Below are positions 4,006-37,907 of a stretch of 47,714 nt of DNA, piece by piece. Origin of the DNA: a virus (taxonomy: Duplodnaviria > Heunggongvirae > Uroviricota > Caudoviricetes); IMG/VR virus record IMGVR_UViG_3300028805_000039, positions 191,852 to 239,565 of that record; one strand, given 5' to 3'. Numbering within the stretch: the first letter of the stretch is position 1; the number at the start of each line of letters is the position of its first letter. A program made the position numbers and the translations under genes. The notes below the pieces were generated by a model that made no database searches, was not told where the DNA came from, and worked only from the letters and a program-made list of their open reading frames with translations.

Positions 4006-5082
4006 ATGAATCTTAAATCTTTTTATAAATCTAATGTAAAAATGCTTTATACTAAAAAAGAATTGGATAATTTTAATAATATTTATGTATATTATTATAA
4101 TAAAGTTAATAGTTTTGATGAATTAATATCAAAATTTCCTACAAATTTACATGATATTATTAAATATGAGTTTCATAAACAATTTGAGATTCAAAAAGGT
4201 ATCCAGGGTGGAGTCCTTGTTGAATTAACAATTCTTACAACTATGGCTAACTTTTTTGGTATTTATGATTTTTCTTATGATAATGGGAAATATATTTATG
4301 AAAATGATAAATATATTTTCATTCTTCAAGGGAATTTCGGTCATGGTGGATTAAAAGATGGCAATGATATTAAAATTTTTGACAAAATAGATAATAGATG
4401 GTATAATTGTGAAGTAAAAGAACCTTTTGCTCGTTTTGATGAAATGGATTGGCTTTATACTGAAGAAGGAAAACTTTGTCCTAGTAAGCGAGCAGATAAG
4501 AATAAATTACCATTGTTTTGGCCGATTGCTAATGCGTATAATGCTCATATGAGTGTATTTGATCATATTGGTCATAATTATCCATTAACAGAAGAAATGG
4601 TTAAAGAAATTGTTTCTAATTATTTTGGAAATGTAGATTATATTTTAACATTTACAGAAAAAGATAATTATTTTTTAATAATTCCAAATAATAAAGAAAT
4701 ATTTAGCTTAATTTATTCTTATAAAGGTTCTGAAATTAGAACTGTTAGTGGGAAAAATTTAAAATGTGTTTTTACACCTGTTTATGCCAAAAACGTACTT
4801 GATAAATATCTTATTAAAGAAGATGATAAATATTATTATTTTAATGTTGATGATTTTATCTATACTATTGGTAGACAGAGTTCTAATAAAGGAAGATATA
4901 AATTAATTGAAGGTTTTGCTATTTTGCAAGAAAATGCTATTATTGAAAATAATATTTTAAAGTGTGAAAAAAAGTATTTTAAACAAAATAGCGCTGTTAT
5001 TAGTCCTAAAATTAAACTTATTTCAGATTATAGTAAAATAAAAGATATTATTATACAGGGAGAAGATAGTCTTGACAAATGA
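4006..5082 (+). CDS. putative PD-(D/E)XK nuclease-domain protein; possibly the N-terminal (endonuclease + helical) part of a Type IIG RM enzyme
   Basis: RBS AAGGAG + ATG 4006; ..IFDKIDNRWYNCEVKEPF.. (D..EVK motif); ends TGA 5080-5082, directly followed in the +1 frame by the MTase-domain ORF. Confidence 0.4.
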   Translation: MNLKSFYKSNVKMLYTKKELDNFNNIYVYYYNKVNSFDELISKFPTNLHDIIKYEFHKQFEIQKGIQGGVLVELTILTTMANFFGIYDFSYDNGKYIYENDKYIFILQGNFGHGGLKDGNDIKIFDKIDNRWYNCEVKEPFARFDEMDWLYTEEGKLCPSKRADKNKLPLFWPIANAYNAHMSVFDHIGHNYPLTEEMVKEIVSNYFGNVDYILTFTEKDNYFLIIPNNKEIFSLIYSYKGSEIRTVSGKNLKCVFTPVYAKNVLDKYLIKEDDKYYYFNVDDFIYTIGRQSSNKGRYKLIEGFAILQENAIIENNILKCEKKYFKQNSAVISPKIKLISDYSKIKDIIIQGEDSLDK

Positions 5083-6879: not shown

Positions 6880-6920
6880 GATCAAATTACAGTATCCTAT
6901 GGAACTGTGATATAAATATA

Positions 6921-6981
6921 AAGACTCAAACAGCAATTTTATTGGAATAGTCTGTTAAACTATAATTCAAAAAGAGTCTTG
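6921..6981 (+). ncRNA. small structured RNA element, AAGAC..CAGCAA family (terminal helix AAGACTC/GAGTCTT)
   Basis: Shares 5' AAGAC(A/T)C...ACAGCAA motif with elements at 7152, 10862, 11245. Confidence 0.3.
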
Positions 6982-7006
6982 TGATTTAAATAAAAAAATC
7001 TTTTAT

Positions 7007-7035
7007 TTGAAAAATTTAAAAAAATTTGATATAAT
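7007..7035 (+). promoter_or_regulatory. sigma70-like promoter copy 5 (upstream of tRNA-Pro)
   Basis: TTGAAA 7007-7012, TATAAT 7030-7035. Confidence 0.7.
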
Positions 7036-7073: not shown

Positions 7074-7149
7074 CGGGGAGTAATTCAGTTGGTAGAATGC
7101 GTGATTTGGGATCACGATGCCGTGGGTTCGAGTCCCGCCTCTCCGACCA
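7074..7149 (+). tRNA. tRNA-Pro (anticodon TGG)
   Basis: CGGGGAG/CTCTCCG, D-arm ATTC-AGTTGGTA-GAAT, anticodon stem CGTGA/TCACG loop TTTGGGA, CCA. Confidence 0.8.
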
Positions 7150-7151
7150 TA

Positions 7152-7219
7152 AGACACATACAGCAACTTTTAAAGATACAATTTTTATGTTATCGGTTCA
7201 AGTCCGATTATGTCAGCCA
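7152..7219 (+). ncRNA. tRNA-like element (AAGACACATACAGCAAC 5' motif, perfect T-arm ATCGG-TTCAAGT-CCGAT, 3' GCCA) lacking a pairing 5' acceptor strand
   Basis: Directly follows tRNA-Pro; possible Y-RNA-like or degenerate tRNA. Confidence 0.3.
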
Positions 7220-7275
7220 TTAATTTGATGTATTATCCAATGGGTAGGATGAAAGAGTATGATGTGTCTAGATAT

Positions 7276-7432
7276 AGCCCCGTGGTGTAAAGGTAGCACA
7301 CTGGACTTGTCGATATGGTGTAATGGAAGCATAATTGAATGCCTCTTGTAATTGAGAGGAGGCGCTAGTTCGATTCTAGCTATCGGCTCCATGACTCCAA
7401 TGGTGTAGGTTCGAATCCTGCCGGGGCTGCCA
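7276..7432 (+). tRNA. tRNA-Gln (anticodon TTG) interrupted between nt 34 and 35 by an 83-nt insert (7309-7391)
   Basis: 5' half AGCCCCG-TG-GTGTAAAGGTAGCAC-A-CTGGA-CTT (7276-7308) and 3' half TGAC-TCCAA-TGGT-GTAGG-TTCGAAT-CCTGC-CGGGGCT-G-CCA (7392-7432) join to a canonical cloverleaf. Confidence 0.6.
7309..7391 (+). tRNA. tRNA-like gene nested inside the tRNA-Gln anticodon loop (identity unclear; possible 8-nt loop TGTAATTG with GTA)
   Basis: Acceptor GTCGATA/TATCGGC + T + CCA, perfect T-arm GCTAG-TTCGATT-CTAGC, D-arm GTG-TAATGGAAG-CAT. Confidence 0.45.
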
Positions 7433-7702
7433 TCCAAAATTAAGAAAGGTTTAAAAGTATGGAAAGATTATATTAGTTACATCATGGTGATGTTTTTACA
7501 GTTTCTGCTGATTTATTTTTAACCACTAATTGGAATGTTGATAATTTTAAATTTATAAAATATAATTTTTATTCTAAACCTTGGTGGAAATTTTGGGAAA
7601 AAAGAAAATTAAAAAATGTTTAGGTAATGTATGTCGGAAATGACACACAAAATAATTATCTTGTAACAAATGAAAAGAAATGTATTGAGGAGTTTTATAA
7701 AA

Positions 7703-7978
7703 ATGATTAGAACTAAAATTCGTTTGGAAACTAATAAAGAAGTTACTGCGTTTGTTAGTAAGTTAAATACTGATGGCAGTATTGATAAGTATATTGTTGA
7801 AGATGAGGAAGGTCGTCATCGTGTAAATGCTCGTTCTTATCTTGGTATGCTTTATGCTTCTGCTGAATTTGCTGGCAATATGTTCCTTGTAAATGAAACT
7901 GAAGATGGTAAGTTTCCTGCTTTTGTTTATGATTTTATGCCATTGAGCGAAAATGATGGAAATTATATCCATGAGTGA
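7703..7978 (+). CDS. hypothetical protein
   Basis: RBS GAGGAG then ATG 7703 (track ORF 7670..7978 same frame). Confidence 0.5.
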   Translation: MIRTKIRLETNKEVTAFVSKLNTDGSIDKYIVEDEEGRHRVNARSYLGMLYASAEFAGNMFLVNETEDGKFPAFVYDFMPLSENDGNYIHE

Positions 7979-8206: not shown

Positions 8207-8209
8207 GGA

Positions 8210-9080
8210 GTAGCAGGAATGGAAATCCTGTATAAATCTTCAATATGATGTGTCAGGAAGTAGGGTTAGGAGCTCATCTTTTAAAGAGCGATTTGCGGCA
8301 GCTGGGCAAATCCTTGCGCGCAAGCGACACTGACCGGGTTAGGGATTTACCTTGAAAATCTAACAAGATTTTTTCTTGTTGTGAGCCATAAGGTTTTGGC
8401 TTGATATAAACCTAGTGAGGTTTTTACCTCACTTATAATATATCGTGGAAGGCAAAGTAAACGAGCCGCCGTTATAATATGGGTATTGATAAACACCGCA
8501 ACAGCAATTATTTATTTGCTTGGGGAGCCGGTGATAGTTGGTGTAAGTCCAGCCCACGATGCCAGCCCGATTGGGCGGCGTCAATGATAACTAGACGAAA
8601 AATGTTATCTATATCGTAGGTGGGTTTATTAAACTGGCGATGAAGTTGCTTACTGTGGCAGATACAAGGTAAGCCGTTTCCAAAGACGAAATGATGGTAT
8701 GTTGGATAGAATATATTAAATAATGATTATTATCGCAGCTGTCTCACTGTGCTATGTAAATGAAATTCCCTTCTCTTGGTTCTAACATTAGAACTCCAAC
8801 TAATAATGATGAGAAACACTAAATATTTATTTAGAAGTATGGACTAAGGTTGTGGGCAAAAATGATTTTTTATATGTAATTTATTTTCAGAGGGTTAGGC
8901 TATAAATGCGGGATATGATTTGGTGTAATCGCGGGTGCGCACACTAGATACTCTTTTTAGAGTTAGAAGACTTAGGCAAAAACCACCTAAGAATCATAGG
9001 TTCAAGTAGGGCAACCGGAGCTTGGAAAGTTATGAAAATAATTATAATATAGAAAATCATTTTTGTTTTAATAAAAAAAC
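8210..9080 (+). ncRNA. candidate large structured non-coding RNA (ORF-free, GC-enriched, many hairpins, flanked by tRNAs)
   Basis: No ORF >=60 aa on either strand for ~1.4 kb; local GC far above genome background; hairpins e.g. AGTGAGG/CCTCACT, GATAAC/GTTATC. Confidence 0.4.
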
Positions 9081-9086
9081 TTTTAT

Positions 9087-9115
9087 TTGAATTTTATAAA
9101 AAAATATCATATAAT
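9087..9115 (+). promoter_or_regulatory. sigma70-like promoter copy 6
   Basis: TTGAAT 9087-9092, TATAAT 9110-9115. Confidence 0.65.
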
Positions 9116-9154
9116 ATATATGTAAATTAAATAAAAAAAAGGAAATTTAAAAAA

Positions 9155-9427: not shown

Positions 9428-9447
9428 AAAATTTGATAATTTTTAAA

Positions 9448-9476
9448 TTGATTTTTTATAAAAAAAATGTTATAAT
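9448..9476 (+). promoter_or_regulatory. sigma70-like promoter copy 7
   Basis: TTGATT 9448-9453, TATAAT 9471-9476. Confidence 0.65.
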
Positions 9477-9527
9477 ATATATGTAAATTAAATAAAAAAT
9501 AATTTTTTAGAAAAGGAATTGAATGAA

Positions 9528-9915: not shown

Positions 9916-9990
9916 CCTCCCTTGGTGTAATGGTAGCACGGGTGGCTCTAACCCACCAGGCGTTGGTTCGATTCCGAACAGGGAGTGCCA
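9916..9990 (+). tRNA. suppressor tRNA, anticodon CTA (reads UAG); probably Gln-derived
   Basis: Anticodon stem GGTGG/CCACC with loop CTCTAAC (CTA at 9948-9950); D-arm GTG-TAATGGTAG-CAC; T-loop TTCGATT; 3' AGGGAGT-G-CCA resembles the phage tRNA-Gln(CTG) end; acceptor has a C1/T72 mismatch. Confidence 0.7.
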
Positions 9991-9995
9991 TTGGC

Positions 9996-10024
9996 TTGAC
10001 TTTTATTAAAAAATTTGATATAAT
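9996..10024 (+). promoter_or_regulatory. sigma70-like promoter copy 8 (TTGACT-17-TATAAT)
   Basis: TTGACT 9996-10001, TATAAT 10019-10024. Confidence 0.65.
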
Positions 10025-10039
10025 ATATATGTAAATATT

Positions 10040-10260
10040 GCGGATTGGTGCAAAAGTTAACACGTCGGTCTCTGGGGCTATGGTGTAAAAAACATACTTG
10101 GAAAGCAAGGGCCTTGAGAAGTTGGGGCAGTACCAACTAGCTCCACCAAAAACCGAAGAACAGGGGGCGGTACCCTGATCCGCTGCCAACACGATAACAA
10201 ATAAGTGTATAAACGGATATGTGGCTGACGAACCTACTGTCATCTCCCTTCCTATGGTGA
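10040..10260 (+). ncRNA. GC-rich untranslated leader / candidate small RNA downstream of promoter 8
   Basis: ~220 nt without ORF; contains tRNA-like fragments (GGTGTAAA, ...GCTGCCA). Confidence 0.25.
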
Positions 10261-10861: not shown

Positions 10862-10950
10862 AAGACACGTTCAGCAAGTTATTTATAAATCGACACTTTT
10901 AATAGAAAATTTGATTTAATAGAAAATTTGATTTGTTTTCAAGTGTCTTG
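10862..10950 (+). ncRNA. structured 5' leader element, AAGACAC..CAGCAA family (terminal helix AAGACAC/GTGTCTT, internal 17-nt direct repeat)
   Basis: Lies between promoter 9 and ATG 10962. Confidence 0.3.
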
Positions 10951-11231: not shown

Positions 11232-11244
11232 TAAAATAAAATAT

Positions 11245-11356
11245 AGACAGATACAGCAACTTCTTTTTAAAAAGAATTTTAGCATAATGGTAATGCATTT
11301 GACTTGTTAATCAAAATATACGGTTCAAATCCGTGATAACTCTTTTAATCTGTCTA
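11245..11356 (+). ncRNA. tRNA-like structured RNA (terminal 8-bp helix AGACAGAT/ATCTGTCT, D-arm-like AGCATAATGGTAATGC, T-arm TACGG-TTCAAAT-CCGTG); YrlA/Y-RNA-like candidate
   Basis: Not a canonical tRNA (T-arm not adjacent to terminal helix); shares ACAGCAAC motif. Confidence 0.35.
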
Positions 11357-11365
11357 GTTAATATG

Positions 11366-11827
11366 CGGGCGTGGTGGAATAGGTAGACACCAGGGACTTT
11401 AGAGTATAAAGATACAAAGAGCATTAAGGTAGGAAACTCCTTAGATGAATGTTGGCTAATTCGGTGAAAGTCTTACTGAGACAACGCCGAGCTAAATTAA
11501 ATAATGATTTACTATCAATAAATTGAGTAGAGGTCCATATGATAGTAGTGGATAAATAAACAGCCTTTATTCAAGATCATTATTTATAAATGTGTAGAGA
11601 CTATATACTAACCACCTAAACAGAAATGCATGGTGAAAACATAGTCCAGACTACAACATTAAATAATAATCCTCTATCAGTAAATTGAATAGAGACCCAT
11701 ATGATAGTAGTGGGAATCTGCAAAGACTTTATTCAAGATTATTATTTAATGGCTATGGTGACATAGAGTAGTAGGAAAATCCCTTGGTCGAAAGACCGTG
11801 CGAGTTCAAATCTCGCCGCCCGCACCA
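11366..11827 (+). tRNA. tRNA-Leu (anticodon TAA), class II, with ~375-nt group-I-like intron (11401-11775) between U34 and A35
   Basis: 5' exon GCGGGCG-T-GGTG..CACC-AGGGA-CTT; 3' exon AAAA-TCCCT-long variable arm-GCGAG-TTCAAAT-CTCGC-CGCCCGC-A-CCA; intron follows U and ends in G; intron contains GACUA / UAGUCC P7-like pair. Confidence 0.6.
11401..11775 (+). mobile_element. group I-like intron in tRNA-Leu(UAA) anticodon loop (contains two ~95-nt internally duplicated segments)
   Basis: Insertion site identical to the classic cyanobacterial tRNA-Leu intron. Confidence 0.5.
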
Positions 11828-12644: not shown

Positions 12645-14144
12645 ATGTCTAATTCTTTTATGAATGGTTTGCAGAATGCCACTAATTATGGCTATACTAC
12701 TAATGGTGCTCTTAGTCATAAGACCACTGGTAATGATTTGCTCGATATGTTCGCTCAGGCTGGCGCTTACCGTAGACGCACTGATAATGATTGCATTCTT
12801 CTTTTTAAGAATGCCTATATCGAGAATTCTAAGTATGCTCTTAAGTGTCTCTTCTATATGAGAGATATTCGTGGCGGTCAGGGAGAGCGTCGTTTCTTCC
12901 GTGTATGCTACAAGTGGCTGATTAGTTATGACAAGGCTGCGGCTAAGCGTAATCTTCAGTATATGAGCGAGTATGGTCGCTGGGATGATTTGCTTTATAT
13001 CTGTCAGGGCACTTCTCTTTGGAATGATGCAATGCAGATTGTTCGTTCTCAGCTTATGCTGGATATGGATAGTTGCAATCACAGCGATAAGACCGGTATT
13101 AGTTTGCTGGCTAAGTGGATGCCTAGTGAGAACACTTCTAGTGCTGTAACTAGAACTTTGGCTCATGAGGTTCGTACTGCTCTTGGTTTTAATCATCGTC
13201 AGTATCGTAAGACTCTTTCTGTGCTTCGTGATCGTTTGAACGTTCTTGAACGTTTAATGAGCGCTGGTCGTTGGGATGAAATCGAGTTCGATAAGATTCC
13301 TTCTAAGGCTGGTATGAAGTATAAGAATGCTTTTGCTCGTAGAGACATGATTGCTCAGAAGTATGAAAAGTTCGCTAAGGACGAAAATACTACTGTTAAT
13401 GCAAAGGCTCTCTATCCTTACGAAGTTGTTGAGCAGGCTCGCGCTTGCCGCGGAGCAGTTGACCGTGCTATGATTAATAAGTATTGGGATAATCTTGAAG
13501 ATTATTTCAATGGGGCTACTTTGGATGCTCTTTGCGTCATTGATACTTCTGGTTCTATGACTTGGGGCAGCAATCGTCCTTATCCTATTGATGTAGCAAT
13601 TTCTCTTGGCCTTTATTGTGCTGAAAGAGCCCGCGGTCCTTTCGCTGGGAATTACGTTTCCTTCTCTTCTCGTCCTCAGTTGATTCGTACTGAAGGTATT
13701 GATTTTGTTGATAAGGTATACCGTATCTATCGTACTAATCTTTGCCAGAATACGAACATTGAAGCTACTTTCGATTTGCTTCTTGATACTGCGATTCGTA
13801 ATCGTTGTAAGCAGGAAGATCTTCCTAAGTCTTTGATTGTTATTTCTGATATGCAGTTCGACCAGGCTCGCGGTGCTTATTACGGTGATCGTAGTTATGG
13901 TGTTAGAACTCTTATGGAAAGAATTGAAGGAAAGTGGAACCAGGCTGGATATAAGATGCCTAATCTTGTATTCTGGAATGTAAATGCTACTGCTAATCCT
14001 AATATGCCAATGGAAATGAAGGATGGCGTGTCTTACGTTTCTGGTTGCTCTCCTGTAATTTTCAAGCAGATTCTTACTGGGAAGACTGCGTTCGACCTTA
14101 TGTATGAAGTGCTTGATGCTGAGCGTTATACCGTTATCGGTTAA
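12645..14144 (+). CDS. vWA-domain protein with Ro60/TROVE-like N-terminal region (Rsr-like; or DUF2828-type)
   Basis: MIDAS DTSGSM, ..YVSFSS.., ..LIVISDMQF..; N-terminus TNGALSHKTTGNDLLDMFAQAG resembles Ro60 'NAGG..vsde.rL.rFl.lG'; no TAG. Confidence 0.5.
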   Translation: MSNSFMNGLQNATNYGYTTNGALSHKTTGNDLLDMFAQAGAYRRRTDNDCILLFKNAYIENSKYALKCLFYMRDIRGGQGERRFFRVCYKWLISYDKAAAKRNLQYMSEYGRWDDLLYICQGTSLWNDAMQIVRSQLMLDMDSCNHSDKTGISLLAKWMPSENTSSAVTRTLAHEVRTALGFNHRQYRKTLSVLRDRLNVLERLMSAGRWDEIEFDKIPSKAGMKYKNAFARRDMIAQKYEKFAKDENTTVNAKALYPYEVVEQARACRGAVDRAMINKYWDNLEDYFNGATLDALCVIDTSGSMTWGSNRPYPIDVAISLGLYCAERARGPFAGNYVSFSSRPQLIRTEGIDFVDKVYRIYRTNLCQNTNIEATFDLLLDTAIRNRCKQEDLPKSLIVISDMQFDQARGAYYGDRSYGVRTLMERIEGKWNQAGYKMPNLVFWNVNATANPNMPMEMKDGVSYVSGCSPVIFKQILTGKTAFDLMYEVLDAERYTVIG

Positions 14145-14278: not shown

Positions 14279-14307
14279 TTGACTTTTCTAAAAAAATATA
14301 TTATAAT
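14279..14307 (+). promoter_or_regulatory. sigma70-like promoter copy 11 (TTGACT-17-TATAAT)
   Basis: TTGACT 14279-14284, TATAAT 14302-14307. Confidence 0.65.
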
Positions 14308-14336
14308 ATAAAAAAGAAATAGAAAGGAGATCCTAA

Positions 14337-14831
14337 ATGTCAATTAGAGGAACTTTTGCTAGTATAGATGATTTAAAAATTATAGATAATCCAACAATAG
14401 ATGATGTTGCTATTGTTGGAAATTAGATGTATCAATATAAAGATGGATGGCAACCAATAGATACAACAGATAAAAAATTTGATATTGGATTAACTGAATA
14501 TTAGTTAAATCAAATGGTAGTTAAACAATTACCTGATTATACTAATTTATATAAAGCAAAAAAAATTATTAGAGATTTTACTCATAAACAAGGGCAAGTA
14601 TTTATGCTACTTTGTCATGAATTACGATATTATACAGTTTTATATTTAGAAAAAGAAGGTTATGATAAAATTGAAGATATTGTAATTGAGTGTTTAAAGG
14701 GTATGGGAACTATTAAAGATATTAGCAAAGAGGATGGAGCAATTGGATGTTGGGTTTTAACTCCAGAAGATGATGAAGCTCATATGTTCTTTTTGTTTAA
14801 TTATGATGGAGGATTTGAAAGATGCGTATAA
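14337..14831 (+). CDS. hypothetical protein (164 aa) with 2 in-frame TAG (14424-14426, 14502-14504)
   Basis: RBS AGGAG, ATG 14337; frame continuous with track ORF 14514..14831. Confidence 0.55.
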
Positions 14832-15091
14832 TGTATTGTTATATTGAACCATGGGTAGTCAATCAAAATATTTATTTAATGAATGATGGAATCGAACCTG
14901 TGGTTACAGATAAAATTAATTTAGAAGATTTACCTATTTATTTAACAAATGCTTATAAAGAAAAAAAATGTGATAAAATTATTCTTCATGGCAGTGTTAA
15001 AGGAATCACAAACCAATGCGCCGAAGATGTTATTAATTATGGACTAACAAATTATGGATTAAATAATATGAATATAGAGGTAATAAAATAA
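14822..15091 (+). CDS. hypothetical protein
   Basis: track ORF, overlapping start. Confidence 0.45.
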   Translation: MRIMYCYIEPWVVNQNIYLMNDGIEPVVTDKINLEDLPIYLTNAYKEKKCDKIILHGSVKGITNQCAEDVINYGLTNYGLNNMNIEVIK

Positions 15092-15336
15092 TGACAAAAT
15101 ATTTACTTAATGCAACAAACACTTATAGAGTTCATACTGTCGCAGAAGTTGAACAACTTCATGACTTACTTAAACATGATACAAATTTTGAACTTACTGC
15201 TTTTAGTTATACTACAAAAGATATTAAAGTTAAAGGTGAAGTTATTGACCAATATCAAGTTGTAAAAGCTAAAATTGTATTTACAAATGAAAAAGAACCA
15301 GAAGTTGAGTTCCAGGAGGAATATCATGAGGTTTGA
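15091..15336 (+). CDS. hypothetical protein
   Basis: track ORF. Confidence 0.45.
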   Translation: MTKYLLNATNTYRVHTVAEVEQLHDLLKHDTNFELTAFSYTTKDIKVKGEVIDQYQVVKAKIVFTNEKEPEVEFQEEYHEV

Positions 15337-15943
15337 AAGAGTATAGGCTTATCCTGATGCTATTCTTCCAACTCGTGGAACTGAAAAAGCTGGGGGTTAT
15401 GATTTATATGCCGCAGAAGATACTGTAATTCTTAGTTATCAAGAAATCATTGATGAACTTAAAATAGCTTATAATTACTCTCTTAGAAATAAGAATACTA
15501 TAGGAATTGATTGGGAATAGAACATTCTTCCACAAATTCTTAAAAATTGTTCCTTCGATTGTCGTCCAACATTAGTTCCTACTGGAGTAAAAATCTATTT
15601 AGATAAAGATAAAACCTTTGATATCCAAGCTCGTTCGTCTCTACCTAGAAAAAATTGGTTAATCGTGGCAAATGCTCCTGGACTTATTGATGCTGATTAT
15701 GTTGATAATCCAGATAATGAAGGACATATTTTTGTTCAATTAATTAATCTTGCTCCTTTCCCATTTACTATTAAAAAAGGTGAAAAATTTGCCCAAGGAG
15801 TTATTCGTCAATATTTTACTGTAGATAATGATAGCCATGGCGGCGAAAGAATGGGTGGCTTTGGGAGCACTGATAAAATTTTTACAAAAGAAGAATTTGC
15901 TCCTAATCTCTTTGGCAATGGGACTAGTTTTTCATATACTTAA
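15326..15943 (+). CDS. dut: dUTP diphosphatase (dUTPase) with 2 in-frame TAG (15344-15346, 15518-15520)
   Basis: RBS CAGGAGGA + ATG 15326; motifs PTRGTEKAGGYDL, RSSL, GLIDADY, RMGGFGSTD; frame continuous with track ORF 15665..15943. Confidence 0.8.
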
Positions 15944-15961
15944 ATAGGATATTGGAGTTTT

Positions 15962-16453
15962 ATGAGATTACTCGCATTAGACTAGGCTTCACGAACTACG
16001 GGTTGGGCAATCTTTGATGATGAAGAATTAGTTAATAGTGGAACTTTTACTTTGAAATCTGATGATATTGGAGAACGACTTGTCGATTATAAAAAGCATG
16101 TAGAAAAATTGATTTGTGATAATGATATAGAAGAAGTTGCTTTTGAAGATATTCAAATGTAGAATCAAATAAATAATGTTTAGACTTTTAAAGTTTTAGC
16201 AGAAATATTTGGGGTTACACAAGAATATTTAGTAGAACAAGGTCATTCATATCATGTAGTGAGTTCTAATACTTGGAAATCACAATTAAATATAAAAGGT
16301 AAGCAAAGAGCAGAATAGAAAAAAAATGCTTAGGCTTATGTGTTAGAACATTATAATAAAAAAGTATCTTAGGATGAATCTGATGCTATTTGTATTGGTT
16401 CATGTGTAGTATTACAAAATAAAAAGAAAAAGGCTGACTTCAATTGGGGTTGA
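15962..16453 (+). CDS. RuvC-family Holliday junction resolvase (phage type) with 6 in-frame TAG
   Basis: MRLLALD*ASRTTGWAIF.., ..EVAFEDIQ.., ..DESDAICIG..; TAG at 15983, 16160, 16181, 16316, 16331, 16370; ends TGA 16451-16453; verified codon by codon. Confidence 0.65.
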
Positions 16454-16531
16454 GGGCAGCCTTTTGTAATATTCTTATTAGTTTTTTCTTTTATTATGAA
16501 AGAAAGCTAAGAAAGGAAGAGAGAACCATAT

Positions 16532-17041
16532 ATGTTAGATTTTATAATTAAATATTGGCTTGAAGTTGCTTTTGGCTTAGTATGTGGGGCTGTCGCTTGG
16601 CTCGCTAAAAAATACATTACTATGTCAAAAACAGAAAAAGAAAATCATGAAACAGCAATTATCACAACCATTTAGGAAAAAATGGATGATTAGTATGATA
16701 AGACACAAGAATAGATGGATGTATGTTATAATCGTCTTAATAATAAAATTAGTGAATTTATCGAAGAATCACGAGAAGCTGATAAATAGACTATTAAAAC
16801 AATTGATAATATGCGAGGGGACGTTCTTATTATTGAAGGAGCATATTTTAGGAATGAATGCCGTAAATTGTTAAAAGAAGATCATATTATTACTAATGCT
16901 GAATTTAATATTATTACAGTATAGCATACAGCTTATAATAATTTAGGCGGAAATCATGAAGGCGATGCCTTGTATGAGATGGTAAAAGCTAAACATTAGA
17001 AACATTTAGTTGAAAAAGGCTCTAACGATGATGACTATTAA
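16532..17041 (+). CDS. membrane protein (N-terminal TM) with 7 in-frame TAG
   Basis: MLDFIIKYWLEVAFGLVCGAVAWLAKK..; ends TAA 17039-17041; verified codon by codon. Confidence 0.5.
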
Positions 17042-17044
17042 ATA

Positions 17045-17095
17045 AAAAAAAGAGGAAAATAAATTATTTATTTTCCTCTTTTTTTTATTTTTTTA
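17045..17095. terminator. bidirectional rho-independent terminator between convergent operons
   Basis: AAGAGGAAAATAAA-TTAT-TTATTTTCCTCTT flanked by A-run and T-run. Confidence 0.8.
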
Positions 17096-17394
17096 AATAC
17101 TCTATTAGTAACAGCTACAATTTCATCTCCATAAGTTGAAAATATATCTGCTAATAATTCTTCTTGGTCTAATGTTAAAATAACATTATAACTAAACATA
17201 GCCGCATGGGTCACTTCATGAGCTAATACTTTTCTGAACTTGACCTCATCTAGCCCATCTGCGATATAAATAGTTTTAGTAAAATTATCACAACAGCCAA
17301 GAGTAAAAGTATTTCTATTTGTTAATAGCATAGGATAAGTTGGCGGCACAATACGCACTCGCCAACTCATTCCATTAATGACAAATATAATCAT
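17068..17394 (-). CDS. putative Zn-metallopeptidase (HExxH)
   Basis: ..VLAHEVTHAAM.. Confidence 0.5.
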   Translation of the reverse strand: MIIFVINGMSWRVRIVPPTYPMLLTNRNTFTLGCCDNFTKTIYIADGLDEVKFRKVLAHEVTHAAMFSYNVILTLDQEELLADIFSTYGDEIVAVTNRVFKKIKKRGK

Positions 17395-18005
17395 TTCACT
17401 ATTTTTGCGGATAATTGCGCAAGCTTAGTTGATAATATTTGTTTTTCTTCTGGAGTTGCTTTTACGATCATTTCAGTTAAATCTTCCCCTAAATCTTTAA
17501 CATAATGATCCAAATCTTTCATTGATTTTTGATCATCGGCTCCAGAATTTTTTCCTTCCATATACATGCGACGAGAATAATAACTACGGCCATTATTAGT
17601 TATTTCACCATCATTATAATTTAAATGATCTTCACGCCAAGCCTTATCTCTCATTATATATGGGGCATATTCCATATAAGGAACATAATTACGCATATTC
17701 CCAGAATTAGTAAATTGCCCATCAGCATTTCTAGACTAACCATCATAATAATGCGTTCCACCTCCATTATTAGGATTTCCACTTTCCATATAATAAGAAA
17801 TATTCATAGGAGCCTAAGAATGTTCTTCTTTTTCTTTTGTTTTATCCATAGCTTCAATAATTGAGCAATAGTACATGGCTTCTTCTAAGTCTTTAATCAT
17901 GTCTATTACTTCTCCCATTTCTTTTGCATTAACCTTTTTTAAATCACCCATTTGGCCTTGAACAGAGCCAATTAAACATTGTTCAATATTTCTAAGTTGT
18001 TCCAT
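17391..18005 (-). CDS. hypothetical protein; track ORFs 17814..18005 and 17391..17696 joined by read-through of 2 TAG (plus-strand CTA at 17814-17816 and 17736-17738)
   Basis: Same frame, no TAA/TGA between; codon-by-codon check. Confidence 0.55.
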
Positions 18006-18006
18006 A

Positions 18007-18429
18007 TTAAGCCACCCTTACTACAATAAGATTTGCATTTTGAACATCTGCTGCGGCAACACCAGAGTTCTCTACACTAATTTGGGCGCAACATCCTTGA
18101 GCAACATCAATAAATAATGAACTACTTACACTATTAAATTCTTCTACTGCGCCAGGAGTAGAAATCATAGTGGAAGTACTAATTGGCTCTCCATTTACAG
18201 CAATAGCAAAAGAAATCGGGTCTGTCGCAGTACCATCTGCGGGAATCGCAACATTACCATTGAAATTCACATAAAATCTCGCACGGCATTGATTAGTGAG
18301 TCCGCGAAGACTCACTAATCCGCTACCTTCTCGATGTAATATTGATGGATTTCCACTTACGGCAGTGCTAGTAAAAACAACTACTCCATTGGGAGCAACA
18401 GTCTATAAAGCATTAGCTGTTATTTCCAT
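18007..18429 (-). CDS. hypothetical (structural?) protein, 1 in-frame TAG
   Basis: RBS AAGGAG-7nt-ATG (minus) at 18429; extends track ORF 18007..18315 upstream through TAG (plus 18403-18405). Confidence 0.5.
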
Positions 18430-18449
18430 ACTACATCTCCTTCCTTTAA

Positions 18450-19280
18450 TTAGCCTACTAAGTTATTTCCGCCACATCCGCAGCCACAGCCATAACCATA
18501 TGTTGGCCAGCCATTACTTACTGGGAATACTTGACCAGTATATGGATTAGCTGTTAAGTAAGCAGGATTTGCTACTGGACGAAGTTGAGAAATAAGATAA
18601 GCATTTTGTTCGGCTTGTGAAGCCTGTGTTTTAAGTGCATTATTCTCATTTTGTAATGCTGTAATTCTATCTTGTACTAAGAAATCAAGAATAGAACGGG
18701 TATTAGCATTATTATTTTCCATAATATCACGGACACCATCCATAACTGCCTGACGGTCAGCGCAGTTTTCAGTTGCGATATTATAGTTGAGTTGTGCTAA
18801 TGCACCAGAAATCATTTGGTCGGTTTGGCAATTAGCAAGTTGCTGTGCTGCCTACATACCTGATAACTGTTGTGTAAGAGCAAAAGTGTTTTGTAATCCA
18901 CCAACAGTTACGCCATTAATTGCATTAGTAATAGTATTAGTGTTCTGACAAGCCTATAAACCTAAATTGCTAATATCACTTTGAATTGCACTAGTACCGT
19001 TAGTTACAGCAGCAGTAGTAGTAGCAAAACCATTAAGGATACCAGTGTTAAGGTCATAGAACTTATCACTATTACTATCCATATTATAGATGTAAGGCAT
19101 AGCAGCATTTCCGCCACCATTATTGCCCCAGCCATTTCCCCATCCGCCAAAAGCGAATAAGAAGAGGAGGATTATCCACCAACCTCCGGCCCCGCCGAAA
19201 AAACCATCATTGCCGTATCCACCATTACCGGTAGCAGCAGCAATGTCCGCTAAAGAGTATCCATTTTCATTGTTAAACAT
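18450..19280 (-). CDS. Gly/Asn-rich membrane protein (TM WWIILLFLFAFGGW; C-term GCGCGCGG), 2 in-frame TAG
   Basis: track ORFs 18954..19280 and 18450..18815 are in one frame, joined through TAG at plus 18954-18956 and 18852-18854; RBS AAAGGAGG. Confidence 0.55.
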
Positions 19281-19311
19281 ATGCGTTTAACCTCCTTTAA
19301 TAATATATTAT

Positions 19312-19554
19312 TTACAGCCCTAAACTTTGTTTAAAAGCAGTAAATTCTTTATCAAAGTCTATCCCACGCTAAGCACAGATATTACGAGCGATTTTTTCTA
19401 TATCTGCGGTATTACCTTGCTGAGCTAGACTAAGGAGGTTCTATCCCATAGGGGAAGACTATGCTTGTTGCTATAAATACTCCATCATCATTTGTTGAGG
19501 GTTCTGTTTATTCCTCACCATCTACATCATCATTTGTATTGGGTTACTATTCAA
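19312..19554 (-). CDS. small Gln-rich protein, 6 in-frame TAG
   Basis: ..MMMEYL*QQA*SSPMG*NLLSLAQQGNTADIEKIARNICA*RGIDFDKEFTAFKQSLGL; TTG/ATG start after RBS GGAGG; TAA stop. Confidence 0.4.
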
Positions 19555-19956
19555 TTAAAAAACCTCCTTAAAACCTTGGGGATTTTCTTGTGCCGGAGAG
19601 GTTTGTGGGACAGTAACCTTATTCTAATTTAATAACTCTGCAACTTTGCCCATTGCCTATTCAAATTCTTGACGAGTGACAAATTCTCCAGATACTGGTT
19701 CTGTTGGCAGAGGTTTCAATTCATACATATTTAATTGGGCTATCCCATCAAGCCCTACGGTCTTTGTATAAATTTTTTTATTTGCAATATCTGGAAAATA
19801 AAAAATTGAACCATCAAAATCAATAGAGGTAGCTTTTACTTCTTCTAATGAAGAAACAGGATGCCCTTTTAATCCACCGAACTATGGAATTGGTGGACTA
19901 ACTATACGCTATTGCGGCATTATAGAGCTAGGCTATTGCTGGTAATAATTATACAT
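19555..19956 (-). CDS. hypothetical protein, 6 in-frame TAG
   Basis: MYNYYQQ*PSSIMPQ*RIVSPPIP*FGGLKGHPVSS...; only frame free of TAA/TGA across 19558-19956; ends TAA (plus 19555-19557). Confidence 0.45.
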
Positions 19957-20165
19957 ATCATCCCTTCTTTTTATAAATTTTTTTGGTATCGCTCTTACCA
20001 ATTTTATGTAAAATTTATGGTAAATAATTTTAAAACTTTTGCCAAAAAAAATTATTAAAAATTTTTTAAGTAAATGCGGCATTGAGGGCAAGAATAAATA
20101 ATATACTTTCCTTTTTTTTCTAAAATAAATAGAGATATAAAAAAGTAAAAAAGGAGATAGAAATA

Positions 20166-20585
20166 ATGAAACCAGAAACACAAGCTTTATTACAACAAAT
20201 TTGGCAATTATGTATAATTCCATTATTAACAGTTCTTACTGGATATATTATTAAATTAATTAATAAACAATCTGATAAAATGTAGAGAGAAACTGATAAT
20301 GAATTATATAAAAAATATATCGCTTTATTAGATGACACAATTGTTAAATGTGTAATTGCTACAAACCAAACTTATGTAGATGCTCTTAAAGATCAAAATG
20401 CTTTTGATGTAAATGCTCAAAAAGAAGCCTTTAAACGTACATATGATTCAGTTATGGCTATTCTTAGTTTAGAAGCAAAGAATTATTTAGAACATGCGGT
20501 TGGTGATTTAAATACTTATATTACAAAAGCTATTGAAACATAGGTAAAAGTTAATAAAATTTCAACAATTACTATTACTGAATAA
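20166..20585 (+). CDS. small membrane protein, holin-like (LL-H-type?), 2 in-frame TAG (20283, 20541)
   Basis: RBS AAAGGAG, N-terminal TM LCIIPLLTVLTGYIIKLI; verified codon by codon. Confidence 0.4.
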
Positions 20586-20739
20586 TAAAAAAGAAGATTT
20601 TAAAAAACTAATATAAAACTTTTTTAAATTATAATTAAATATATTAAAATGGACAATTATATATAATTATTAATTAAAAAAAAATAAAATTATATGTAAT
20701 CATAAAATTTTAGTATACCATTGGAGGAAGTGACATTAT

Positions 20740-21294
20740 ATGGCGAAAAGAGTTAGTGAATTACCGATAACAACACATACTAATTTAACACCTAGTGCTT
20801 GTCTTTTAGTTAATGAACCTACTAATAATGGATTTATTACTAAATAGATGACTATAGCAGAATTAAACAATGAATTAATTGAAAATTATCATTATCTTAC
20901 TTCTAATAATGATAATTCTAATTTAACCAATGAGAGTAAAATTAATACACTTATTGGTAATGATACTAACAAGTCAGTACGTACTATTGCTAATGAAGAA
21001 TTAGTTACTTAGTTAATCCCAGCCAATGCTAGTGCAGCACTTGATACACTTCAAGAAATTGCGGCTTGGATTCAAGCTCATCCTAATGATGTAGCACAAA
21101 TAAATTCTACTATTGCTGCTTTACAGCAAAAATTAACTTTAGGAGTAAATAGTAATAATAATGAATATTCTACTGTTAAGGATTATGTAGAAGCTACTAT
21201 TGCTAATGAAAATAGTAATTTACAACCATTAACAAAAGAAGATATTCATGAAGCATTTTATGGCTTTAAAGAAATTGAGATAAATACTATTTGA
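20740..21294 (+). CDS. tail fiber-like protein (N-terminal conserved region), 2 in-frame TAG
   Basis: RBS GGAGGAAG; ..ITK*MTIAELNNELIENY.., ..DTLQEIAAWIQAHPNDV.. Confidence 0.5.
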
Positions 21295-21331
21295 ACTTAA
21301 ATAAAAAAAATAAAGAAAGGAATTAATAATT

Positions 21332-21955
21332 ATGACTTTTTTAGATTTTTCTGGGGTATAGGCCCTTGCTGAAATGTTAACTAATAGTTTTTTAGTTATG
21401 GAAAAAGAAAATAATAAATATGGAGATTTAAATCTTGTTAAATTTACTCATGACACAAATAGTTAGTAGTATATCGTAAATGTTTATCCTGTTGATGCTG
21501 CAGAACCTAGTAATGTTCCACTCCCAGAAATTATAAGCGAACATGGCAATTGGAGTTCTCCTGGATATTTTACAGATAATGTAACATTAAATAACATACC
21601 AAATACATTATGGGTTATTGATAAAACAGAGTCATCAAGTTTTTCCAATGGTGATAGTGTAATTAGAACATTCCAAAATTGTCATTTAAATGATGATCCA
21701 GAAACTCTTAATACGTTAATTAATAATTTATCAGAAAAGAATTTACACTTAACTATTTATGATTTAACTTTTGCAACTGGTAATAAACTTTTAATATATA
21801 AGAATCTTACAAAAGCATTAGTATTATTTAAAAGAAGTAGTATTGTTGATAGTGGATATAATTCTGCTTATGTGGTTAATGAAATTGATTTAAATACCAA
21901 TTCTATTAATAAATATTATACTAATTATAGTAATGATAGTGGAGGTGGATCGTGA
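21332..21955 (+). CDS. hypothetical tail-associated protein, 3 in-frame TAG (incl. TAG-TAG pair 21467-21472)
   Basis: ATG 21332, TGA 21953-21955. Confidence 0.45.
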
Positions 21956-22038
21956 GAAATTTAATAATAACTTCTTTATTTAAGAATAAAAAAATATTTT
22001 TATTTTAACATATACTTTAAAAGGAATGTGAAATAATT

Positions 22039-22532
22039 ATGGTAAAAAAATTAGTGAATTACCCGTAACTACTCATTCTAGTTTAACACCTAGCGCTTGT
22101 CTTTTAGTTAATGAACCAAGTGGTACTTGATATATTACTAAACAAATGACTATTGCTGAATTAAATAATGAATTAATTGAAAATTATAGTTATATTACTA
22201 CTAATACAATTTCAAATTATGTATTATCATCTAGCTGTGGAAGTAGTAATGATAATGTGGATAATAATTTATTCCATAGTGCAGGTTATTTAGAAACAAT
22301 GGATACAACAGGTGAATGGTGGCAAACAGAATACCCAATCGTATTTTTTGATACAATAACACAAAAACTTTTCTGTGTTGATAAATATAATCATCAAGCT
22401 ATATTAATGGATACTGCAGTAGATGGTATTACTATAGATGGAACAGATTATAGTGGAGCTAAACTTGTTAATCTCTTTAGTTATGAGGATAATAGCACTA
22501 CTTATACTGCTTCAAACGCCTCTAATACTTAA
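22039..22532 (+). pseudogene. degenerate paralog of tail fiber gene 20740 (1-nt deletion near start + in-frame TGA); intact ORF only from ATG 22146
   Basis: Nucleotide-level similarity to 20740-20860 but frame broken; track ORF 22146..22532. Confidence 0.4.
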
Positions 22533-22545
22533 TAATTAATATAAT

Positions 22546-22582
22546 AAAGGATAAAGAGTTTTTTACTCTTTATCCTTTTTAT
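22546..22582 (+). terminator. rho-independent terminator
   Basis: GGATAAAGAG-TTTTT-TACTCTTTATCC + TTTTT. Confidence 0.8.
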
Positions 22583-22670
22583 TTATTTGGCCATTAGTAA
22601 ATAAAGATAAAATTAAAAAATGTATATGTATTAGAAAAGAAAATTTTTATTCAAGAGGTGAATAAAAAAT

Positions 22671-23600: not shown

Positions 23601-23614
23601 AGGAGATATATCAT

Positions 23615-25096: not shown

Positions 25097-25176
25097 AAAA
25101 AATAAAAAAAATAGAATTATTATATTAATTAAATAATATAATAATTCTATTTTTAATTTCAACAAAAAAAATAAAA

Positions 25177-26712: not shown

Positions 26713-26714
26713 AT

Positions 26715-29552: not shown

Positions 29553-29588
29553 AAAATAAAAACTCCTTTTTCTCTAAAAAATTTTTTA

Positions 29589-30050: not shown

Positions 30051-30101
30051 CTAAACTATCTCTCTCCTTTATTCTATAATTTTATTTTATATTTGACAAG
30101 T

Positions 30102-36638: not shown

Positions 36639-37907
36639 ATGCTAAATAAAGATGGAGTTCGTGAACTTGCTTATGTTGTCCTTGTTGATGGGATTGAACC
36701 TATTCCTGGATATGATAGAGTAGAACATGCTCTTATTGGTGGTTGGCGAGTAATTGTGCAGAAGGACCAGTTTAAAGTTGGTGACCCAGCTATTTATTTT
36801 GAAATTGATAGTAAGGTGCCAAAGGATAGAGAATGTTTTTCCTTCCTTGAAAAGCGTAATTATAAGGTAAAGACCTTAAAGATGTGTAAAACTATTTCAC
36901 AGGGGCTTCTTATGCACGCAAGTGATTTCGGTTGGAAAGCTTATCGGGGTATGGATCCACCTTTTGATGAACCTGCTTGTATTATTGACGATAAAAATCA
37001 TTGTTATTATGTCGATGATGAATCTCGTTTCTTGACTTCTATTCTTGGCGTAACCTATGCCGATGATGAAGATAATGCTCGTAAGGCTCCTTCTGTTGAT
37101 AAGTATAAAAAGATGGCCCAGCGTCATCCTAATATCTTTAAGAAGTCTTGGGCACGCTGGATGATGAAGCGTGAGTGGGGTCGTAAGCTCATGTTTATGT
37201 TCTTCGGTAAGAAGAAAGATAAGAAAAATGGGTGGCCTTCTTGGGTTTCAAAGACCGATGAGGAGCGTGTACAGAATATGCCTTGGATTCTTAATGATAC
37301 TGGTAGTTGGGTTATTACTGAAAAAATTGATGGTAGTTCTACTACCTTTACTATGAAACGTGGTAAGCGTGGTAAAAATGAGTTTTATGTCTGTTCTCGT
37401 AATGTATGTTTTGATAGTGTAGATAAACCTTGCTATTATGACACTAATATTTACTGGGAAATGGCACAAAAGTATGATATGTATAATGTTCTTTCAAAAT
37501 TTCTTGAAGAGCATCCCGATATTGAATGGGTAACTATTCAAGGCGAGACCTTCGGTAATGGTATCCAAAAGAGAGATTACTCTATGACAGAGCATGATTT
37601 CCGAGCCTTCAATCTTATTACTCCTAATAAAGGTCGTTGGGGCACTATGGAAATGTATAATACATTATTCACAGCAAAATATCGTATTCCTTGTGTGCCA
37701 GTCATTAACAAAGATTTTCACTTTGATTCTCTTGATATGTTGAAGGACGATGACGATAGTAATAGAGTAGATACTCTTCTTAACTTAGCTACTGGTAATT
37801 CTCAAATTGATGGACTTCCTCGTGAAGGATTTGTTCTCCGTTCTGCGGATGGCACTAAATCTTTTAAAGCAGTAAGTAATAGTTTCCTTCTTAAATATCA
37901 TAGTTAA
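36639..37907 (+). CDS. ATP-dependent RNA ligase (Rnl-type nucleotidyltransferase)
   Basis: motif I EKIDGSS (KxDG), motif IV EGFVLR, motif V KSFKAV. Confidence 0.55.
   Translation: MLNKDGVRELAYVVLVDGIEPIPGYDRVEHALIGGWRVIVQKDQFKVGDPAIYFEIDSKVPKDRECFSFLEKRNYKVKTLKMCKTISQGLLMHASDFGWKAYRGMDPPFDEPACIIDDKNHCYYVDDESRFLTSILGVTYADDEDNARKAPSVDKYKKMAQRHPNIFKKSWARWMMKREWGRKLMFMFFGKKKDKKNGWPSWVSKTDEERVQNMPWILNDTGSWVITEKIDGSSTTFTMKRGKRGKNEFYVCSRNVCFDSVDKPCYYDTNIYWEMAQKYDMYNVLSKFLEEHPDIEWVTIQGETFGNGIQKRDYSMTEHDFRAFNLITPNKGRWGTMEMYNTLFTAKYRIPCVPVINKDFHFDSLDMLKDDDDSNRVDTLLNLATGNSQIDGLPREGFVLRSADGTKSFKAVSNSFLLKYHS

Follow-up and report, generated by a model that had tools for sequence, protein, structure and literature searches.

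The window analyzed here is a 47,714-nt stretch of AT-rich phage DNA (positions 191,852 to 239,565 of IMG/VR virus record IMGVR_UViG_3300028805_000039, Caudoviricetes) whose tRNA genes are clustered at 1.3-12 kb and in which reading TAG as a sense codon almost doubles the total length of open reading frames (ORFs), with the gain at ~14.3-31.5 kb. At 7276-7432 on the plus strand lies a tRNA-Gln(UUG) gene that is interrupted within its anticodon by an 83-nt insert, itself shaped like a tRNA, which we refer to as the A-type insert. The parts of the locus are listed below; L numbers designate related contigs and loci.

7276..7308, plus strand: 5' exon of tRNA-Gln(UUG), with the acceptor 5' strand, D arm, anticodon-stem 5' strand, and C32 U33 U34 (Rfam alignment; identical to L007:4783-4815)
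7309..7391, plus strand: A-type insert, tRNA-shaped, 83 nt (tRNA model, fold, and exact indel against L007)
7309-7315 with 7381-7387, plus strand: acceptor stem of the A-type insert, 7 bp
7318-7321 with 7329-7332, plus strand: D stem of the A-type insert
7342-7346 with 7355-7359, plus strand: extra stem of the A-type insert, CCUCU/AGAGG, closing an 8-nt loop
7364-7368 with 7376-7380, plus strand: T stem of the A-type insert, loop UUCGAUU
7388 and 7389-7391, plus strand: 3' end of the A-type insert, U73 and CCA, respectively
7392..7432, plus strand: 3' exon of tRNA-Gln(UUG), with U35 G36 A37 C38, anticodon-stem 3' strand, variable loop, T arm, acceptor 3' strand, G73, and CCA (Rfam alignment; identical to L007:4816-4856)

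When joined, the two exons form a 74-nt tRNA-Gln(UUG). In a search of the whole window, the Rfam tRNA model RF00005 (gathering score 29) matches 7276-7429 over its full length with 48.6 bits (E = 1.9e-7), and its alignment assigns an 86-nt insertion to the anticodon loop. The split lies between nt 34 and 35 (CUU|UGAC) of a 7-nt loop with U33 and a defined anticodon, UUG; the anticodon stem, CUGGA/UCCAA, forms 4 of 5 pairs, the same as in uninterrupted alleles, and G73 is consistent with Gln identity. ARAGORN at default settings misses both the outer gene and the insert, and with introns permitted it recovers the outer gene with a mis-assigned anticodon; the alternative register, in which 81 nt are removed to give a CAU anticodon, was rejected because uninterrupted orthologues fix the loop as CUUUGAC. 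An earlier description of this DNA, made without database searches (the sequence-only reading), had proposed this anatomy with these coordinates, and the sequence reads as it described; the covariance-model check that it named gives the score above for the outer gene and 36.1 bits for the insert.

That second score, for the A-type insert alone, covers 7309-7388 and aligns its acceptor, D, and T arms, leaving 26 unaligned nt where the model has a 17-nt anticodon arm. In the fold, the stem CCUCU/AGAGG is preceded by 8-9 extra nt, so the insert departs from a canonical anticodon arm (5-bp stem, 7-nt loop, U33), and ARAGORN finds no tRNA in it. To call the insert "itself a tRNA gene", as was done at the outset, is thus an overstatement: the acceptor, D, and T arms and the CCA stand, the canonical anticodon arm does not, and the insert is probably tRNA-like rather than a decoding tRNA. 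Its 5' junction is at the base of its acceptor helix, and its 3' junction is 4 nt past that helix. No Rfam family other than tRNA is found in 7140-7480 or 7305-7395 at E values up to 10.

Relatives of the locus were collected using as anchor a conserved ORF just downstream (7670-7978), which yielded 5 IMG/VR and 27 metagenome loci, and in most of these an uninterrupted tRNA-Gln(UUG) lies immediately upstream of the orthologous ORF. On L007, a related and syntenic rumen-metagenome contig, the uninterrupted tRNA-Gln(TTG) at 4783-4856 is identical to the joined exons at 74/74 positions and scores 65.7 bits on the Rfam tRNA model. The flanks of the two loci are ~97% identical on both sides, and the loci differ by an exact 83-nt indel (7308|7392 corresponding to 4815|4816), which places the insert between U34 and U35. 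The comparison with relatives suggested by the sequence-only reading has therefore produced what it looked for: related phages have, at this locus, a gene without the insert whose sequence equals that of the joined halves.

A homologous A-type insert occupies the same site in L010 (interrupted gene at 1331-1487, insert at 1364-1446), in an exon background identical to the uninterrupted L019 allele. The two inserts differ at 14 of 83 positions (83% identity over 83 nt; 85.7% in a 77-nt BLAST alignment); five of the differences are in paired positions and no pair is broken, with one full compensation, U-A to C-G, in the stem CCUCU/AGAGG. This alignment consists of two sequences only because exact and degenerate pattern scans of IMG/VR and GTDB genomes yielded no further A-type inserts, and no free-standing copies of the A-type or other non-B inserts (see below) were found in the related loci examined. 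An assembly artifact was rejected, since the architecture recurs in independent assemblies (L010, L013, L014, L022, L027, L035, L036, L040, L041, and L045).

The A-type insert belongs to a broader class. Related TAG-recoded phage contigs contain 11 combinations of host tRNA and insert, the hosts being Gln, amber suppressor, Ile, Lys, Trp, and Glu tRNAs. These combinations were gathered by a structural scan (ARAGORN on spliced products) and by a context-blind motif search; the structural scan demanded a 7-nt loop and is circular with respect to loop restoration, whereas the sample of B-type inserts collected by motif is not. The combinations, and the second interrupted tRNA of the window, are as follows.

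Gln(UUG) with A-type insert, 83 nt: window, L010
Gln(UUG) with B-type insert, 75 nt: L013, L014
Gln(UUG) with 66-nt insert: L022
Gln(UUG) with canonical tRNA-Trp(CCA), 74 nt, 60.8 bits: L027
Suppressor (CUA) with B-type insert: window 10074-10148, L018, L003
Suppressor (CUA) with 49-nt minihelix: L008, L021
Ile(UAU) with 71-nt insert: L003
Ile(UAU) with B-type insert: L040
Lys(UUU) with B-type insert: L036
Trp(CCA) with B-type insert: L035, L045
Glu(UUC) with 44-nt insert: L041
10039..10188, plus strand: second interrupted tRNA in the window, amber suppressor tRNA(CUA), loop CUCU|AAA (custom scan and ARAGORN on the spliced sequence)
10074-10148, plus strand: B-type insert of the window suppressor, 75 nt, GGGGCUA...UAGCUCC-A-CCA

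In all 11 combinations, the insert starts at +1 of a 7-bp acceptor stem and ends with N73-CCA (CTA in L010), and excision of the unit from +1 to CCA regains a 7-nt loop with U33 and a sensible anticodon (11/11). Junctions are at 34|35, 35|36, or 36|37. Every insert retains the acceptor stem, the T arm, and a segment that forms the elbow; the anticodon arm is canonical once (L027), aberrant in the A-type and B-type inserts, and absent from the inserts of 44-66 nt, the shortest of which (44-49 nt) are bare minihelices. In the L027 case (8260-8410), the canonical tRNA-Trp(CCA) sits inside tRNA-Gln(UUG) at CUUU|GAC and is the sole Trp gene in that locus; in sister contigs of L027 a free-standing tRNA-Trp lies between Leu(AAG) and Arg(UCU), and that copy is missing from L027. 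One such sister, L028, has an uninterrupted Gln gene at 8259-8333 as well as the free-standing Trp gene. On a splicing model, a single locus could in this way give two RNAs. We also note that an uninterrupted suppressor tRNA(CUA) is present at 9917-9986, just upstream of the interrupted one, and that the position syntenic to 10039-10188 in L008 is occupied by a different suppressor gene, which has the 49-nt minihelix insert.

The B-type inserts represent a 75-nt tRNA-like RNA family that appears not to have been described earlier, with no match in Rfam 15 and none in GenBank phages. The elements were collected by an internal motif only, irrespective of context, and comprise 16 distinct 75-nt sequences in a gap-free alignment with the frame GGGGC...GCUCC-A/G-CCA. 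The discriminator is A or G, a G3:U70 pair likened to that of tRNA-Ala and transfer-messenger RNA (tmRNA) is present in 13 of the 16, and a 10-nt loop holds the invariant core AAAGCAAGG. Under the cloverleaf model 87.5% of cells are paired and 11 pairs are changed on both sides. The observed covariation score is reached by none of 500 shuffles, and slid controls fall to 33-52% paired. Covariation is seen in three of the four helices, the D stem having one-sided changes only. Copies occur both nested and as free-standing genes, as listed here.

Nested: L003, L013, L014, L018, L035, L036, L040, L045, and the window
Free-standing: L034:10072-10146; L039:4328-4402; L041:170-244
Free-standing, minus strand: L037:3395-3469; L038:8792-8866; L042:4090-4164; L046:1375-1449

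The nested copies, nine distinct ones distributed over five host tRNA species, are without exception flush and loop-restoring. Because the B-type RNA is conserved and also exists as free-standing genes (seven copies), the inserts include RNAs with functions of their own.

One explanation for such inserts is a self-splicing or self-cleaving RNA, either a group I-like intron in miniature or a small ribozyme, for instance one of the hepatitis delta virus-like theta ribozymes that follow tRNAs in recoded gut phages. In its favor, the bacterial tRNA introns known to date lie in the anticodon loop and are group I introns that splice themselves, the window contains one candidate elsewhere (RF00028, 27 bits at 11390-11655, below the gathering score), and theta ribozymes are tRNA-associated in similar phages (PMC10879173). 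However, a group I core would not fit into 83 nt, the 44-49-nt inserts are only minihelices, no Rfam ribozyme or intron matches in the two intervals searched around the insert at E values up to 10, and the conserved features are tRNA ends rather than a catalytic core, so that we regard this explanation as extremely improbable. Group I introns and known small ribozymes were accordingly rejected as candidates, RF00028 and all other Rfam families giving no match at that threshold, as was a bulge-helix-bulge intron, by inspection, since there are no two 3-nt bulges 4 bp apart and the position is 34/35. The subthreshold RF00028 candidate belongs to a separate gene at 11365-11827 (plus strand), a class II tRNA, probably Leu(UAA), with the loop CUU|AAAA and an insert of ~370 nt that includes two ~90-nt direct repeats; relatives are at L008:11956-12417 and L025:7446-7765, and other long inserts (230-510 nt) are present in tRNAs of L003, L004, L013, L028, and L033.

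A second explanation is that the inner RNA is the functional product of a gene lying within a dead one: RNase P and 3' processing would free the inner RNA alone, with the outer halves discarded and the outer gene either a recently inactivated pseudogene or a carrier for transcription and processing. The sequence-only reading offered a disrupted pseudogene as its alternative, and this is weakened by the state of the outer stems: in six interrupted Gln alleles, which represent five exon backgrounds, 20 of the 21 stem pairs are intact, and 13 uninterrupted alleles have 20-21 of 21. The L013/L014 exon background (acceptor AGGGCCG/CGGCCCT, T stem GAAGG/CCUUC) is seen in interrupted form only and is fully compensated, and the Trp exons of L035 and L045, although widely diverged, still have paired T and acceptor stems via compensatory changes. 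Exons of the window and L010 differ at ~15% of positions by manual count, again with compensatory changes, and the A-type inserts have diverged to a similar extent. In their loci, the interrupted genes are also the sole copies seen; neither the 47.7-kb window nor L013 or L014, loci of 16 kb, contains a further tRNA-Gln(UUG). Moreover, the flush, loop-restoring boundaries found in 11/11 combinations, including all context-blind B-type inserts, would be needless if the outer tRNA were dispensable. Nonetheless, B-type inserts exist as conserved free-standing genes, close relatives have an uninterrupted allele such that the insertion may be recent and the exons not yet decayed, tRNA-Gln is presumably supplied by the host, and the outer gene of L027 has a changed D loop and a CCA mutated to CTA. 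We therefore keep the dead-gene explanation as a serious, though unlikely, rival.

The codons read by the interrupted tRNAs of the window are the dominant Gln-type codons of the late genes. In the structural/late block at 14300-31600 TAG is read as sense on both strands, and the recoded late ORFs have, among Gln-type codons, 80 CAA, 8 CAG, and 94 TAG, with the interrupted tRNAs of the window reading CAA and TAG; window ORFs outside the recoded block have 72 CAA, 62 CAG, and 2 TAG.

The features shared by the inserts (acceptor stem, T arm, elbow, and NCCA) are those recognized by RNase P and RNase Z, and the determinants of bacterial RNase P are U at position -1, a 7-bp acceptor that stacks on the T arm, the elbow, and 3'-NCCA. 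Ten of the 11 combinations have U at -1 of the insert, compared with 5 expected under random placement of the junction in each loop (P = 0.0017). Free-standing B-type genes have U at -1 in all seven cases, and among ordinary tRNA genes of these phages U is at -1 in 192/250 and CCA is encoded in 195/250. With U at -1 and the RNase P determinants, the inserts thus present the 5' context of these phages' ordinary tRNAs.

The window also carries a set of genes with predicted roles in RNA repair.

36639..37907, plus strand: ATP-dependent RNA ligase, Rnl5 (NgrRnl/DraRnl)-like, with an N-terminal OB domain (Pfam PF09414 and PF21189, PHA02142 OB)
31732-32265, plus strand: polynucleotide-kinase-like ORF (Pfam AAA_33; PHROG 505 'polynucleotide kinase')
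32480-33049, plus strand: metallophosphoesterase ORF (Metallophos_2; PHROG 547 'phosphoesterase')
45913-46800: metallophosphoesterase (Pfam/PHROG)
41927-42718: Thg1-like 3'-5' polymerase
43188-44057: RlaP-like nucleotidyltransferase

The ligase noted at 36639-37907 in the earlier description is borne out by the Pfam RNA_ligase and OB domains and by a match to the closest solved relative, the Naegleria gruberi RNA ligase (PDB 5cot, E = 4e-26), and its product is a candidate exon-sealing enzyme. The kinase at 31732-32265 and the phosphoesterase at 32480-33049 form a possible RNA end-healing pair, and a heal-and-seal complement of ligase, 5'-kinase, and 3'-phosphoesterase is thus present, by assignments at the family level only. 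An HNH endonuclease is encoded nearby at 34810-35427. Phage RNA-repair toolkits with ligase, kinase, phosphoesterase, and Thg1- and RlaP-like sets have been described (Iyer et al. 2021, PMC7824862), and Kienbeck et al. 2024 (PMC10879173) report a 140-fold enrichment of DRB0094-family ligases among phages that have tRNA-linked ribozymes. A toolkit of this kind can seal 3'-OH/5'-P ends directly, and ends of another chemistry once they are healed.

The anatomy, the exact presence/absence polymorphism, the recurring architecture, and the intact exons are what is observed, and we interpret the locus as a functional phage tRNA-Gln(UUG) gene with a protein-processed, tRNA-shaped intron, a reading that seems to us about evenly poised between right and wrong. 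The enzymatic steps that we infer, through ligation to production of the mature tRNA, are as follows. The transcript would start at a promoter-like site.

7007..7035, plus strand: promoter-like site, TTGAAA-17-TGTATAAT (TG-TATAAT), assigned by consensus match only, 11/12 matches, extended -10

This site lies upstream of a tRNA-Pro gene, a Y-RNA-like element (7150-7272, see below), and the interrupted tRNA-Gln, and is the probable common transcript start for these RNA genes, with no terminator-like sites between 6700 and 8300; the interrupted tRNA-Gln would then be cotranscribed with its two upstream neighbors. The precursor would be a cloverleaf inside a cloverleaf, the exons supplying the outer acceptor, D, T, and anticodon stems, and the insert jutting from the anticodon loop as a tRNA 'top half' with elbow (acceptor, T arm, D arm, and U73-CCA). 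Host RNase P would cleave at U7308|G7309, as at any tRNA 5' end, leaving a 3'-OH on the 5' exon, and a second endonuclease would cleave directly after the insert CCA at 7391|7392, plausibly either an RNase Z/BN-type enzyme that tolerates CCA or a phage enzyme. The exon halves would remain base-paired to each other and be joined by the phage RNA ligase, with the phage kinase and phosphoesterase healing the ends should the 3' cut give a 2',3'-cyclic phosphate and a 5'-OH. The final product would be a 74-nt tRNA reading CAA.

The precursor could also be left uncut, with the 157-nt chimera a stable product that acts as a tRNA scaffold or as a decoy for anticodon nucleases or tRNA-binding proteins. 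RNAs engineered into tRNA anticodon stems are stable in bacteria (the tRNA-scaffold method), other nondecoding tRNA mimics are close at hand (the Y-RNA-like element and the B-type RNA), and the window has anti-nuclease repair genes. But the insert keeps every RNase P determinant, including U at -1, such that escape from cleavage would be surprising, and neither the restoration of a 7-nt loop nor the nested canonical tRNA-Trp of L027 is explained. We consider a stable chimera quite improbable.

Several considerations weigh against excision and rejoining of the tRNA-Gln exons, of which the 3' cut after CCA is the weak point. An encoded CCA is an RNase Z antideterminant in many bacteria, and exonucleases cannot make this cut because the 3' exon is locked in the outer acceptor stem. 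Cleavage after CCA is described for Thermotoga enzymes and Escherichia coli RNase BN, but we know of no host enzyme established to cleave after an encoded CCA; the window ORFs scanned include neither an RNase P gene nor one for RNase Z. CTA takes the place of CCA twice, in the L010 insert and the L027 outer gene. The Rnl5 (NgrRnl/DraRnl) family is characterized on duplex nicks, not loops, and general tRNA repair, as a defense against anticodon nucleases, explains the ligase and its partners equally well. A ligase homologue was detected on only three of the five contigs of >100 kb that bear interrupted tRNAs. Homologues occur on 44 IMG/VR contigs, including three with interrupted tRNAs (L069, L062, and L076), and the co-occurrence is non-discriminating, since members of this phage group commonly have the ligase whether or not interrupted tRNAs were seen in them. 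The identity of exons to uninterrupted alleles also fits a recent insertion, and the flush boundaries could stem from how the inserts arose rather than from selection for excision. The minimum-free-energy fold of the 157-nt precursor is at -51.4 kcal/mol, whereas the double cloverleaf is 8.6 kcal/mol higher at -42.8, a result that we count neither way because tRNA folds depend on tertiary contacts.

The sequence-only reading had hypothesized that RNase P and RNase Z excise the inner tRNA and that the ligase joins the halves. This is strengthened by the 11 flush, loop-restoring combinations, U at -1 in 10 of them, and the intact outer stems, and is weakened in that CCA normally blocks RNase Z, the ligase family seals duplex nicks, and tRNA repair accounts for the gene set equally well. 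In the full-text literature that we found, whose coverage is incomplete, no paper proposes splicing of phage tRNAs by RNase P and a ligase. We put forward, tentatively, that bacteriophages may own a protein-only form of tRNA splicing that draws on ordinary tRNA end-processing, in which a 'punctuation intron' would be cut out by RNase P and a post-CCA endonuclease and the exons rejoined by a phage ligase; this generalization is possible, if doubtful. Because the interrupted tRNAs of the window read CAA and UAG, the dominant 'Gln' codons of the recoded late genes, the need for a phage-made ligase could also time the switch to late, recoded translation. The inserts may have arisen through the phage repair ligase, if it set a whole tRNA between tRNA halves cut by a nuclease and the product was then copied back into DNA.

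The Y-RNA-like element upstream of the interrupted gene (7150-7272, plus strand) is a structured RNA of ~120 nt with an 8-bp closing stem, AGACACAU...AUGUGUCU, and the motif ACAGCAACUU. It has a T-arm hairpin, a loop-closed acceptor-like hairpin, and a D-arm hairpin, and resembles a circularly permuted tRNA mimic, akin to the bacterial YrlA Y RNAs. The fold has a z-score of -2.5, and compensatory changes relative to L005 are seen by eye; the Rfam YrlA model gives no match to it. Elements like it are at 11244-11356 and possibly at 6913-6990 and 10865-10950, and an ARAGORN 'tRNA-??? (tgtt)' call at 11273-11344 falls inside the first of these. An ORF at 12645-14144 (plus strand) encodes a protein of 499 aa, in which DUF2828, DUF7788, and a weak vWA domain are recognized and which may be a Ro60/TROVE-like partner of the Y-RNA-like elements; a PDB sequence search gave nothing to indicate Ro60 homology.

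Other features of the window lie in the same region or in the late block. An AT-rich promoter-like block (TTGA..., TG-TATAATATATAT) is repeated at ~7007-7035, 9075-9125, 9440-9490, and 10000-10030, directly upstream of RNA genes and small ORFs. After a tRNA-Gln(CUG) gene, ~800 nt at 8207-9030 (plus strand) have no long ORF, a higher G+C content, and many apparent helices, and are conserved in L008 and L009 at 78-98%; this segment could be a large structured RNA, although no Rfam family matches it at reporting thresholds. In GenBank phages, only the tRNA-Pro of the region around the interrupted gene is matched. At 22671-28587, on both strands, four large paralogous BspA-type leucine-rich-repeat proteins (FPxCSYIGxxAFxxCxxLTSI), all with in-frame TAGs, are encoded, and these are probably tail-fiber or host-binding proteins.

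Protein-dependent splicing of tRNAs is considered a trait of archaea and eukaryotes, and, to our knowledge, the bacterial and phage tRNA introns of known mechanism are all self-splicing ribozymes. If the interpretation offered here is correct, it would add a third route of tRNA splicing, in which introns are defined by their likeness to a tRNA in the eyes of RNase P and a 3' endonuclease and removal depends on a ligase. It would also provide a physiological substrate for the phage Rnl5-type ligases, which are strikingly enriched in recoded gut phages. With its flush architecture, the model makes exact predictions of two cleavage sites and one ligation product, and the interrupted amber suppressor at 10039-10188 offers a simple genetic readout for splicing.

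The proposed pathway has partial counterparts in several known systems. In tRNA punctuation, as in mitochondrial polycistrons and the MALAT1 mascRNA, the ends of flanking RNAs are set when RNase P and RNase Z cut out elements shaped like tRNAs. The likeness lies in cuts proposed at both ends of an embedded tRNA-shaped module with conserved acceptor, T arm, and elbow; in punctuation, however, the flanks are separate RNAs that are never rejoined, whereas here they are tRNA halves needing ligation, and the 3' cut is after CCA rather than after N73. In T4 anticodon-loop repair (PrrC versus Pnkp and Rnl1), a loop-broken tRNA held by its stems is likewise resealed by a phage ATP-dependent ligase once a kinase/phosphatase has healed the ends, but the break is host damage and nothing is removed, whereas here it would be programmed by gene structure with removal of 83 nt; in addition, the T4 ligase is Rnl1, and that of the window is Rnl5-like. 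Group I introns such as those of cyanobacterial tRNA-Leu(UAA) share the anticodon loop, the 34|35 position, and polymorphism among relatives, but are self-splicing ribozymes of >200 nt, in contrast to an 83-nt, tRNA-shaped insert with no group I match. Archaeal and eukaryal tRNA introns are similar in their protein-dependent cutting and ligation and in lying in or beside the anticodon loop, yet the bulge-helix-bulge and position 37/38 are theirs and neither is found here, where recognition would be via tRNA end-processing enzymes; we know of no splicing endonuclease in bacteria.

The closest likeness in kind is to the tRNA introns of Lak megaphages, described as 'enigmatic', one of which 'itself may encode a tRNA' (Thr-TGT) (Devoto et al. 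2019, PMC6784885). The Lak introns are present or absent between close relatives and have no Rfam match, and those of Table S6 consist of a ~27-nt hairpin spacer followed by a tRNA-like module, whose acceptor and N73 with 1-2 nt abut the 3' exon without CCA (PMC6784885). Literature that we found, again with incomplete coverage, proposes no mechanism for them. Both groups are thus anticodon-loop inserts in phage tRNAs of TAG-recoded gut phages, with precise presence/absence and no Rfam match, and in both, by our reading of all the introns listed in Table S6, a tRNA-like module has its acceptor 3' strand abutting the 3' exon. They differ in that the Lak spacer would make an RNase P cut non-flush, whereas the insert described here is flush on both sides and ends with CCA, and in that the present inserts belong to another phage lineage, represented by rumen-type metagenome contigs of ~120-240 kb with many host tRNAs and insert types. 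If the splicing model is correct, the Lak introns would be explained as well, and we view the present class as extending the known but unexplained Lak-type introns with a new variant of cleaner architecture.

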